A DNA stretch of 64,000 bases from the NCBI GenBank assembly GCA_016930035.1, contig JAFGHQ010000042.1, positions 16,437-80,436 on the forward strand, in the 5' to 3' direction. Position numbers: made by a program. The DNA is from Gammaproteobacteria bacterium (lineage in GTDB: Bacteria > Pseudomonadota > Gammaproteobacteria > UBA12402). Shown here piece by piece: positions 39,001 through 42,000 of the stretch. Each line of letters opens with the position of its first letter. Positions within the stretch are counted from its first letter, which is position 1.

Positions 39001-42000
39001 GTTCAGTTCTTGCGAGGTCGCTAGGATTTCTTCCAGTGTGCAAAGTCGCCGATCTATAGTAAAATTGTAAATAGGCTAAAATATTACAATAAAATCATAC
39101 TAATATTAAGACTGAGAGTTTATAAAATTTTCAAGGCGTTTTCTGTTTTCTTTTTCTTGTTTTGCTTTGAAATAGATCTCTAAGAAAGTTATTTCGGGCA
39201 CTATTGGGCAGAATGCATAAATAATTCGAATGCCACTTTTTGCGCCACGGCCTTTTAGACTGCAACACTGAAATTTCTTAATTTTATAAAATTTTAATTT
39301 TTCACTATTTCCAACTCCACAAATTTCAAAAATACTTCCATTGTCTATCTTTTTGCAGTGAAGTAGTTCTATCCGATATCTTTTTGTCACCTCTAAATCT
39401 TTTACCAAAGAAGGAAATTTTTTTAGTAATTTTTTAAAATCACGATCAAATTCTTTTGTTTTATTATATTTCATCGTCATCATATTGCCTTACTGAAAAT
39501 TCAGGCGTTCGACAAAAAGCCGATTCATAATCAATGGGTTGTAAATGATTGGTTCCGATCCAGGGCACATCTTTGTGCGAATATTCCTCCATTTGTCTGG
39601 CACTAAAATCCTTAAATCGTTCAATTTCCTGATCAATAAGTTCTTTTTCGTTAGCTGAAAAATTCGACAAATTCGCATGTCTTCTAGGCAAATATTTCTT
39701 TTGGTCGTATTGAAAATATTTTTTAACGACCCGCATCAAATCGCCGTCTTTTTCCATTTGTTGGGCAATTTCTTTAAAGGCAACTGGTGTTGGCCCATGA
39801 TGATTTTTGATATATTTCGCGCCGATCAGTTGTTCTTCATATTTTTCATAATAATCAAAATCGATAAAATACATGATTTTGCAAATGACCGATTCGCCGA
39901 TATTGGGACGCGCACCAATTTTTTCTAAGATATACAAAAATACTTCTTTGAATTTGCTGACTTTTTCTTGTGGCACAGATATGCGTATTTCTGGTACTGA
40001 TTTTGCGCATTTTGAAGATTTTTCCAATTTGACATCTGGGGTGGGGTTTTCTCTGCCAGCCAAAAAATCTTCCAGCGATAAACCGAAAAATCGAGCTAGA
40101 TTTTGCGCCTCTTCGACCAACATTTTACGTGCCCCATTTTCAAGCTGCGCATAAGTTGGGCGTGATATGCCTATTTTATCGGCCAAAAATTCTTGGCTCA
40201 CACCATGTTTTTTACGAAGTTTTTTTAAGAAAGTATTCATAATTTAAAGTAAAGTTAAGTAGTGAAAGAATGAAAAAATTATACGAAATGTAAAATATTC
40301 TGTCAAATGAATTGTTGGGATTATTTTCAATTCATATTCGAAAACAGAGCCCGAAGTTTAAAAATACTATCGGGGACTGACAGAGACTAGAATTTTTTAA
40401 AACAGTTTGTCGCGCGCAGCGCGACACATTCGTTTTTAATTCTTCATTTTTAATTTTTAATTAATTAACGTCATATACGACGTTAATTAAGTGCTTCATA
40501 GACTTGTTCGAATAAATAGCCCATGTGAACACGGTTGGTGAAGTCGAGTTTGTTGGTGTTGATTTTGATGAGCGGGTTTTTGTGAAAGCCGCATCGAACG
40601 ACATCTTCGGGGAAGGTTTTGTAAAAATCATTAAAAGCGCTAATTTCACGATAAGTCCAACCGCCGTCCATTTCCATGGCGCGCGCACGTTCTTGTATGC
40701 GCTGCCAGGCTAATTTCGAACTGCCTTGTAATACGATCAATAAATCGGCTGAGGGTAATGCTCGACTAACTTGTTGAAATTCTGTCATTAATAAATCCAG
40801 TTCGTTTTCGGTTAAAAGGCCATCTTGATGGAAAAGTTTACAAAACACCAAAATATCTTCAGCTAGTGATCGGTCTTTCACGTAGCTATGTTGGCCATCC
40901 TTTCCTCGTTTTCGTAAATCTGCTCGCATGCTTAAAAAATGTTTTTGCAAATCGTAACAATATCTTTTTTTATCTTTGAGAAATCTTTCCAGAAGTGGGT
41001 TTTGCTCGGGGGCTTCGAACAACGCTTGAATCCGTAAGCTTTGGTGCATTAACGTAGTCACCGTTGATTTACCCATGCCAACATTGCCCGCAACGGTAAT
41101 TAAAGTTGGATGTTTCTTAAGATAATCTTCGAGTTTACGTTCCGCATCGACGACCCGAATTGCTGCCGCAGTTTCAGGCAAAGAAATCCATTCGCGAATG
41201 CCCGGTGTGGTGATACGTAAATTGAGTTCGAGTATTTTGTCAATGAGTCGCTGGATAATACTTTCGACATTTTGAGTAATACTATTTTCATCGGTGACAT
41301 CGATCACCATAATCGGGCATTTAAGATGTTGGCTGGCAAACGTTTCATAAAGATTATTGAGTAGTTCAATATAATCGCGCGAAATATGCGCTTCACTGGG
41401 GCGCGCGTGTTTTTTAATATTTTCCATTAAATCATCGGTTTTAGCGCGCAAATAGATCACTAAATCGGGCTCGCTGATTTGGTTTGTCATAAATTTAAAG
41501 GCGCGTTGATATGTTTTAAATTCTTCTTCACTCATAAATCCCAGTATTTTTTGAGCGGTTCCAAAAATATAATAATCTTCAAAAATGGTGCGGTCTTCGA
41601 GAACAATTCCTTGTGCTTGATCAATTTTTTCTTGGCGCATAAGGCGACCATTAAGGAATTCTATTTGCGCTAAGAATGCATTTTTACCAGGATTTTCATA
41701 AAAAGCTTTTAATACGGCTTCATCGATTTCTTCAGGGAAAATATTGATTTTTTGATTAGCCACACTATCAGCAAGACAAGATAAAAGTCGTTTGCTTATT
41801 TCAGGGGAAGTTAAAGCTTTAATCAGCTGGGCTTTTCCTGAACCAATATTACCAATAATACCAATTCTTAAATTTTCCATAGAATTCTCCGAAAATTTAT
41901 AAAAAACATACCGTAAAATTAGCTTACTATGATAAAAAGCGATAAATTTGTTCTGTTAAATAAAGTGGTAGGGAAATAAGTTGATACTCAATTAAATCAC

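Follow-up and report, generated by a model that had tools for sequence, protein, structure and literature searches.

A likely Panacea-type toxin-antitoxin operon with a predicted HigB2-like toxin in a metagenomic contig labelled Gammaproteobacteria

On the minus strand of contig JAFGHQ010000042.1 (assembly GCA_016930035.1), two genes overlap by a few nucleotides. One encodes a protein that joins a helix-turn-helix (HTH) domain to a Panacea domain and the other encodes a small basic protein. The question raised by this locus is whether the two form a toxin-antitoxin (TA) pair and, if so, of which kind and with what sort of toxin. All positions given here are those of the window, by which we mean the whole 64,000-nt stretch that was analysed (positions 16,437 to 80,436 of the contig). 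A sequence-only reading of the window had taken the pair for a type II TA system, and our analysis supports that reading with minor corrections. We consider it likely that the pair is a self-contained type II TA operon of the PanAT kind (antitoxin PanA, toxin PanT), with a HigB2-like toxin of the RelE fold. The two genes, their overlap and the domains of the antitoxin are:

39464-40240, minus strand: panA-type antitoxin gene, 258 aa, an open reading frame (ORF) with HTH_3 and SocA_Panacea domains above the Pfam cut-offs
39106-39483, minus strand: panT-type toxin gene, 125 aa from the first ATG, with a predicted RelE fold, HigB2-like, putative ribosome-dependent ribonuclease acting on mRNA (mRNase)
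39464-39483, minus strand: overlap of the antitoxin 3′ end and the toxin 5′ end, 11, 17 or 20 nt
40064-40228, minus strand: HTH_3 (XRE/Cro-C1) DNA-binding domain, antitoxin residues 5-59, Pfam E 1.9e-15
39560-39883, minus strand: SocA_Panacea (DUF4065) domain, Pfam envelope at antitoxin residues 120-227

Both ORFs lie on the minus strand at the positions and with the lengths of 258 and 125 aa that had been read from the sequence. The 20-nt overlap given with them applies to the longest toxin ORF but is not a fixed value. Three ATGs, at 39483, 39480 and 39474, are candidate starts of the toxin and give overlaps of 20, 17 and 11 nt, respectively. The NCBI model of the toxin (P0001, 122 aa, from a metagenome-assembled genome (MAG) labelled Gammaproteobacteria) starts at the third ATG, 39474, and among related loci the recurrent toxin ATGs are those that give an 11- or 17-nt overlap. 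The start of the toxin is ambiguous, yet it overlaps the antitoxin gene under every start. The junction of the two genes is strongly kept at the nucleotide level (family consensus GAATTTTC.GTAAGACAATATGATGATGAA.TATGA), suggesting that translation of the toxin is coupled to that of the antitoxin. The GC content of the module is 0.334 as compared with 0.375 for the window, and this comparison with the 64 kb around it gave no clear mark of foreign origin.

The antitoxin was recognised by both of its domains. Pfam gave 57 bits for HTH_3 against a cut-off of 23, and 67.7 bits (E 2.1e-18) for SocA_Panacea (PF13274, the former DUF4065) against a cut-off of 25.7, the latter over profile positions 2-112 of 113. 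A hidden Markov model search had been named beforehand as the test that could refute the assignment of DUF4065 to this 258-aa protein; the match lies well above the Pfam gathering score. Matches in the PDB (PbsX/XRE regulators and the lambda repressor) were confined to the HTH region. NCBIfam and PADLOC recognised the HTH only, apart from a weak NCBIfam match to the antitoxin DarG (residues 88-219, E 0.0039), and phrog_1281 matched residues 96-231. Sixty-four non-redundant relatives could be aligned with the antitoxin end to end. In their conservation profile, conservation of the Panacea core starts near residue 86. The Cro/C1 HTH stands at the N-terminus and is joined to this core by a linker of low conservation (about residues 60-85), and a conserved acidic tail forms the C-terminus. 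The residues GPTP (148-151) are at least 97% conserved. A GPV-type signature motif of PanA is reported to be critical for neutralisation (PMC8832971), and the antitoxin carries G148-P149-T150-P151-V152, a candidate counterpart of that motif. Pfam and NCBIfam gave no match to RelB or to ribbon-helix-helix (RHH) proteins, and no recognisable additional neutralising domain was found in the antitoxin.

The toxin is basic, as had been read from the sequence, with an isoelectric point of 9.75 and 29 Lys and Arg residues versus 14 Asp and Glu. In a collection of 5.8 billion proteins it has 525 homologues, most of them 65-74% identical and mainly from MAGs of Patescibacteria; an exhaustive HMMER search found 389 clusters (50% identity) at E ≤0.001. 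Two relatives carry the IMG name RelE. A profile built from 88 diverse relatives was compared with the PDB and matched HigB-2 at E 1.6e-4, with no other credible match. Sub-threshold matches among the same 88 relatives were to PF06296, the family of HigB2-like mRNases (10 of 88, best E 0.001), and to ParE_toxin (4 of 88); the toxin itself fails the gathering score of PF06296. Judged by sequence, the toxins form a separate family within the RelE/ParE fold, one for which the databases hold no model.

Structure prediction with the alignment of 88 diverse sequences gave a confident model (predicted local distance difference test (pLDDT) 96.8, predicted template modelling score (pTM) 0.90), whereas an earlier prediction from a shallow 41-sequence alignment had reached a pLDDT of only 73. 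The modelled protein has the RelE/ParE fold. The absence of such a prediction for the small ORF had been named beforehand as a result that would speak against the pair, and the fold is present in the confident model. HigB-2 was the best structural relative of the model, and mRNases ranked above every ParE. In HigB2 of Vibrio cholerae (VcHigB2), R51, R64, Y82 and K84 are needed for activity, and alanine mutants lose 170-, 350-, 1200- and 3000-fold, respectively (Hadzi et al., PMC5416850). In the HMMER alignment R64, Y82 and K84 correspond to R86, Y104 and K106 of the toxin. Across the 88 diverse relatives these three residues, like K67, G80 and G84, are each at least 90% conserved. The Lys/Arg/Gly-rich β2-β3 loop of the toxin, KGRGAKSG, aligns with the HigB2 loop KGKGKRGG. 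This pattern of active-site residues and basic loop favours an mRNase over a gyrase poison of the ParE type, and the toxin is probably a ribosome-dependent mRNase. K70 of the toxin aligns with HigB2 K49 and is invariant in 41 close relatives. It stands on the same strand as Q72, the counterpart of R51, two residues before it, and may substitute for the missing arginine.

A homologue of the toxin domain was also seen at the extreme C-terminus (residues 3214-3328; 37% identity, E 2.1e-13) of P0206, a protein of 3334 aa with filamentous-haemagglutinin repeats. This is the position of the toxic tip in CdiA-type proteins, and it would lend the toxicity of the domain independent support.

The pairing of the two genes was analysed in 81 loci, which came from exact look-ups of three homologues and from a scan of 185,579 species-representative genomes. 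The scan used an alignment (A1) biased to close relatives, so distant members, such as the T14 entries published by Kurata et al. (2022), were probably missed. A full-length antitoxin homologue was found directly upstream of the toxin on the same strand in 76 of the 81 loci. The remaining five comprise a small fragment, a truncated orphan and three toxins that lie at the ends of their contigs. Such consistent pairing goes far beyond what chance would give. Kurata et al. required of a TA-like locus a partner gene no more than 100 nt away, conservation in at least two species and no longer operon (PMC8832971). In the present family the genes overlap. Clustering of the flanking ORFs of 77 loci from many phyla returned only the antitoxin (70 loci) and the toxin (69 loci) as recurrent families, with no third family in more than 5 loci. 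Neighbourhoods of the relatives are diverse and include a restriction-modification pair, AIPR, RloB, helicases, a response regulator and Nramp. Identities of antitoxin and toxin to the window copy co-vary, for example 77/72%, 57/51% and 44/42%.

The hosts of the family are mainly Parcubacteria/Paceibacterota, Saccharibacteria, Gracilibacteria, Peribacteria and Microgenomates, with scattered copies in MAGs labelled Gammaproteobacteria, Bacteroidetes, Planctomycetia, Omnitrophota, Akkermansia and Azospirillum. No other member found exceeds 75% identity to the window toxin. The nearest relatives of the window copy (toxin 75%, antitoxin 77%) come from Patescibacteria and from unclassified 'bacterium' MAGs, whereas the toxin copies labelled Gammaproteobacteria are more distant (49-56% identity), indicating horizontal acquisition. 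As part of our preferred explanation, the pair is most likely a horizontally mobile accessory module. A tblastn search with the toxin against plasmid and phage collections gave no match. We looked for conserved DNA beyond the module, such as attachment sites or inverted repeats, and found none: the loci diverge at once upstream of the operator described below and after the toxin stop, except in subsets of Patescibacteria, the candidate phyla radiation (CPR). After the stop, L007, L011, L016, L017, L019, L022, L043 and L049, and also L013, L014, L018 and L021, share DNA in subsets (TAGTCCCGCCGTC...CCGAAAAGTTTTGGGGG, or TAAAAGCCCCGCAAAAAAATCGGGCGAAGCCCGAAAAGC). This shared DNA, which the window lacks, may be a common terminator or what is left of a larger mobile element. 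The module also occurs in decayed form: L049 is an orphan, 5′-truncated toxin without an antitoxin, and L077-L080 hold short fragments of toxin and antitoxin. The module has therefore been lost as well as gained.

The DNA upstream of the antitoxin gene contains the following signals, together with a hairpin beyond them:

40278-40306, minus strand: sigma-70 promoter, TTGACA, 17 nt, TATAAT, matching the consensus at 12/12 positions, its -10 box ending 37 nt before the antitoxin ATG
40289-40329, minus strand: putative operator, an imperfect palindrome with 18-nt arms at 40289-40306 and 40312-40329 and a 5-nt gap
40408-40426, no strand assigned: GC-rich hairpin with a T-run on both strands, downstream of a deoxynucleoside kinase (dNK) gene

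The promoter, with a TTTG motif before the -10 box, is conserved in 28 related loci. The arm of the palindrome nearer the promoter spans the -35 hexamer and extends into the spacer. The family consensus of the palindrome is TGTAAaaat...taaCA.tttacTTGACAggatTtTTTaCA, with arms TGTAAAAATAcCTGTCAA-5 nt-TTGACAGgTATTTTTACA. Complementarity of the arms averages 12.0 of 18 positions over the family versus 8.05 ± 1.44 in shuffled sequences, with seven loci at 15-17 of 18; the 5-nt gap is shared by 27 of the 29 sequences. We infer that the palindrome is the operator of the antitoxin HTH and would mediate the autorepression typical of type II systems. What marks a type II system was found in silico: a bicistronic operon, a 12/12 promoter and a palindrome of fixed geometry over the -35 hexamer. 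The hairpin at 40408-40426 belongs to a copy of a dispersed repeat and probably ends transcription of the dNK gene, insulating the TA operon, which would then depend on the promoter described here.

Taken together, the operon would be transcribed from this consensus sigma-70 promoter. A dimer of the antitoxin HTH would bind the palindrome over the -35 hexamer and repress the operon, as the conserved non-coding DNA suggests. The toxin, whose gene overlaps that of the antitoxin by 11-20 nt, would probably be translated by coupling. Published work on PanAT suggests that the Panacea domain and the acidic tail would bind and neutralise the toxin directly; most likely the Panacea core does so, either alone or together with the tail. 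Kurata et al. (2022) found PanA antitoxins in stable complexes with their toxins, and neutralisation needed neither ClpXP nor Lon (PMC8832971). A stand-alone Panacea domain neutralises directly (Ernits et al. 2023, PMC10440598). Freed toxin would enter the ribosomal A site and cut translated mRNA by means of R86, Y104 and K106, a proposal based on the residues conserved with HigB2. The module would have no functional relation to the dNK and AAA+ genes beside it.

Kurata et al. (2022; PNAS, Dataset S1) predicted a toxin group, PanT T14/pT15, whose representative has HigB-2 as its best HHpred match (99.7%) and whose listed toxins include WP_015641600.1, paired with the antitoxin WP_128569608.1, and WP_067091868.1 (PMC8832971). 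Its bacterial members have an HTH-bearing PanA and the antitoxin gene first, with an 11-nt overlap in Candidatus Saccharimonas aalborgensis and in a TM7 genome (PMC8832971). Compared by these listed features, the present pair resembles T14 in its HTH-Panacea antitoxin, the antitoxin-first order, the 11-nt overlap, HigB-2 as best relative and hosts among Saccharibacteria and uncultivated bacteria; the window copy differs in sitting in a MAG labelled Gammaproteobacteria. On these shared features the pair likely belongs to T14. The clusters of ten distant relatives contained only MAG and IMG entries, with no RefSeq names or T14 accessions. The pair adds a member to a PanAT kind that has been catalogued computationally and is known by prediction only.

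The modelled toxin shares with VcHigB2 (PDB 5mje, 5ja8, 5jaa, 8a0x) two N-terminal helices, a four-stranded sheet and a C-terminal helix, as well as the basic, Gly-rich β2-β3 loop and the catalytic R, Y and K in equivalent positions; the two proteins are about 20% identical and differ in the replacement of R51 by Q72. The higBA2 operon is toxin-first, and its HigA2 neutralises through a disordered N-terminal segment without a Panacea domain (PMC5416850). In contrast, the pair here is antitoxin-first, both in the window and in the related loci in which both genes could be placed. With this opposite gene order, and with an antitoxin that has no neutralising segment of the HigA type, it is not a member of classical higBA. 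The pair is not a classical relBE either. The relBE operon is antitoxin-first, and RelB is a small RHH protein that wraps a C-terminal helix around RelE, whereas the antitoxin here is a 30-kDa HTH-Panacea protein with no RHH. Both gene order and architecture had been taken to set the pair apart from relBE: the difference in architecture stands (HTH_3 and Panacea, no RHH), but the difference in gene order does not, as relBE has the same order. SocAB of Caulobacter, a type VI system, has an antitoxin with the same Panacea domain (Pfam SocA_Panacea). Its toxin SocB is a replication inhibitor degraded via ClpXP (PMC8832971), whereas the toxin here has a predicted RelE fold and the operon is type II-like.

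Several observations weigh against the type II PanAT assignment. The toxin has no match in Pfam, NCBIfam or PADLOC, even at E ≤1. Its sequence similarity to HigB-2 spans the C-terminal half only, and with Q72 in place of R51 one of the four catalytic residues is missing. It deviates from its close relatives at seven near-invariant positions (33, 41, 48, 74, 96, 97 and 117). The operator in the window is degenerate, its arms matching at only 11 of 18 positions, a value reached by 4.7% of shuffled sequences. In multidomain PanAs the appended elements neutralise and the Panacea domain may be a sensor (PMC10440598). Kurata et al. tested 25 PanTs in Escherichia coli, and eight of them were not toxic (PMC8832971).

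The alternative that survives best concerns the role of the module and not its biochemistry, and is compatible with a type II PanAT operon. In it the same parts serve in phage defence by abortive infection, the Panacea domain sensing a phage cue and releasing the HigB2-like mRNase. We regard this as possible, and hold it only tentatively. Ernits et al. (2023) proposed Panacea as a sensor and linked the TA network to defence systems (PMC10440598). Modules of the relatives adjoin AIPR, a HinfI restriction enzyme and methylase, RloB, a Schlafen-like helicase and a PD-(D/E)XK/Cas4-like protein, and HTH-Panacea proteins are encoded by phages (phrog_10390, phrog_1281). However, no defence genes adjoin the pair in the window, PADLOC models match only the HTH part of the antitoxin, and no member of the family turned up in the collections of phages and plasmids that were searched. 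A further proposal, somewhat more doubtful, is that an unusually conserved, fully self-contained defensive or selfish unit of about 1.2 kb (operator, promoter, antitoxin and toxin) spreads horizontally through Patescibacteria and occasionally reaches other phyla, including this genome, with Panacea sensing a phage or stress cue and freeing a HigB2-type mRNase. If true, the CPR would have in it a widespread TA or abortive-infection system open to experiment, and its toxin would be the first of the RelE fold shown to be under Panacea control.

It is improbable that the window copy is a decaying or attenuated remnant that has lost its toxicity. The seven substitutions, the degenerate upstream operator arm and the decayed copies elsewhere (the fragments in L077-L080 and the orphan in L049) would fit such a remnant, but both ORFs are full length, the promoter matches the consensus at all 12 positions, and the toxin retains the catalytic triplet and all 38 positions that are invariant in the 41-sequence alignment. 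That the toxin inhibits DNA gyrase in the manner of ParE is very unlikely: the few sub-threshold ParE_toxin matches stand against a structural ranking in which mRNases outrank every ParE, HigB-2 as the sole credible sequence match and the conservation of R, Y and K, catalytic in HigB2. Equally slight is the chance that the antitoxin is a proteolytic adaptor passing the toxin to ClpXP, as SocA, the founding Panacea protein, does (PMC8832971), and not a stoichiometric inhibitor; the PanAs tested by Kurata et al. neutralise without ClpXP or Lon and five pairs form stable complexes (PMC8832971), and the overlapping, autoregulated operon layout is that of type II.

The type II PanAT operon has the following genes nearest to it on its upstream side:

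40483-41880, minus strand: tandem dNK, 465 aa with two dNK domains, directly upstream of the TA operon
41927-43285, minus strand: AAA_14+DUF4143 ATPase, 452 aa, upstream of the TA operon

The tandem dNK and the AAA+ ATPase are present as the sequence-only reading had described them, but a conserved partnership with the pair was not borne out. Either was considered as a third component and rejected, since neither is kept beside the pair in other genomes. Inverted repeats do flank the pair (38679-38721 / 40421-40463 and 38322-38380 / 43462-43520), as had been noted. They were rejected as the ends of a mobile cassette, since further copies lie at 5228 and 50682, and at 9424, 16728, 22793, 31925, 34441 and 44104; members of these repeat families turn up all along the 64 kb. 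The window has at least four families of palindromic repeats that are dispersed between genes and resemble repetitive extragenic palindromes or miniature inverted-repeat transposable elements. One family consists of a 37-nt hairpin (ATGCAACTTTTGGTGTCAGACACCAAAAGTTGCAT; 10 copies), and another of a two-hairpin element of 104-119 nt in at least 8 copies. Dispersed repeats lie at these positions:

99-135, 8182, 10630, 12027, 14827, 20351, 24699, 26095, 27035, 45567
9424, 16728, 22793, 31925, 34441, 38296, 43435, 44104-44283
5228, 38679, 40421, 50682
44063, 46584, 54992, 56461

GC-rich tandem repeats with units of about 28-44 nt are found at 37961-38197 and 22553-22794, in opposite orientation (85 nt, 93% complementary). 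The former, which includes two identical 44-nt copies at 38094-38181, lies inside a gene-free gap of 1.16 kb (37944-39105) downstream of the toxin. Beyond these repeats, one flank of the pair holds large proteins without a Pfam match and a BEACH-ankyrin protein, and the other flank holds housekeeping genes:

34602-37943, minus strand: BEACH protein, 1113 aa, BEACH domain E 4.1e-69, weak PH_BEACH, ankyrin repeats
27206-28384, plus strand: orphan ORF, 392 aa, without a Pfam match at E ≤1e-5, as for the next three
28431-31892, minus strand: orphan ORF, 1153 aa
32064-33587, minus strand: orphan ORF, 507 aa
33904-34383, plus strand: orphan ORF, 159 aa
44306-45538, minus strand: class I/II aminotransferase (IMG name glycine C-acetyltransferase)
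16961-18508: three tRNA genes, Ser-GGA, Arg-CCT and Ser-GCT, close together

The eukaryote-like BEACH-ankyrin architecture suggests a host-associated or intracellular lifestyle, and the orphan ORFs adjoining it may be effector-like proteins. The best named relatives of the aminotransferase are from unclassified 'bacterium' MAGs, followed by Cloacimonadota and Bacteroidota, so the aminotransferase does not support the label Gammaproteobacteria, whose only source is the NCBI record.

If the assignment of the pair were confirmed, an mRNase of the RelE/HigB2 fold would join the toxins for which neutralisation by the hyperpromiscuous Panacea domain has been shown; such pairs are at present only predicted. 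The conserved promoter and operator offer a ready test of HTH-mediated autoregulation in PanA proteins, and a profile for this large unmodelled toxin family would better annotate many MAGs of Patescibacteria. For this genome the finding is an ordinary one: a single accessory TA module that shows no evident connection with the genes around it. Somewhat more interest attaches to the whole family, as it is large, strongly conserved and centred on Patescibacteria, with a promoter and operator of its own and no model in the databases.

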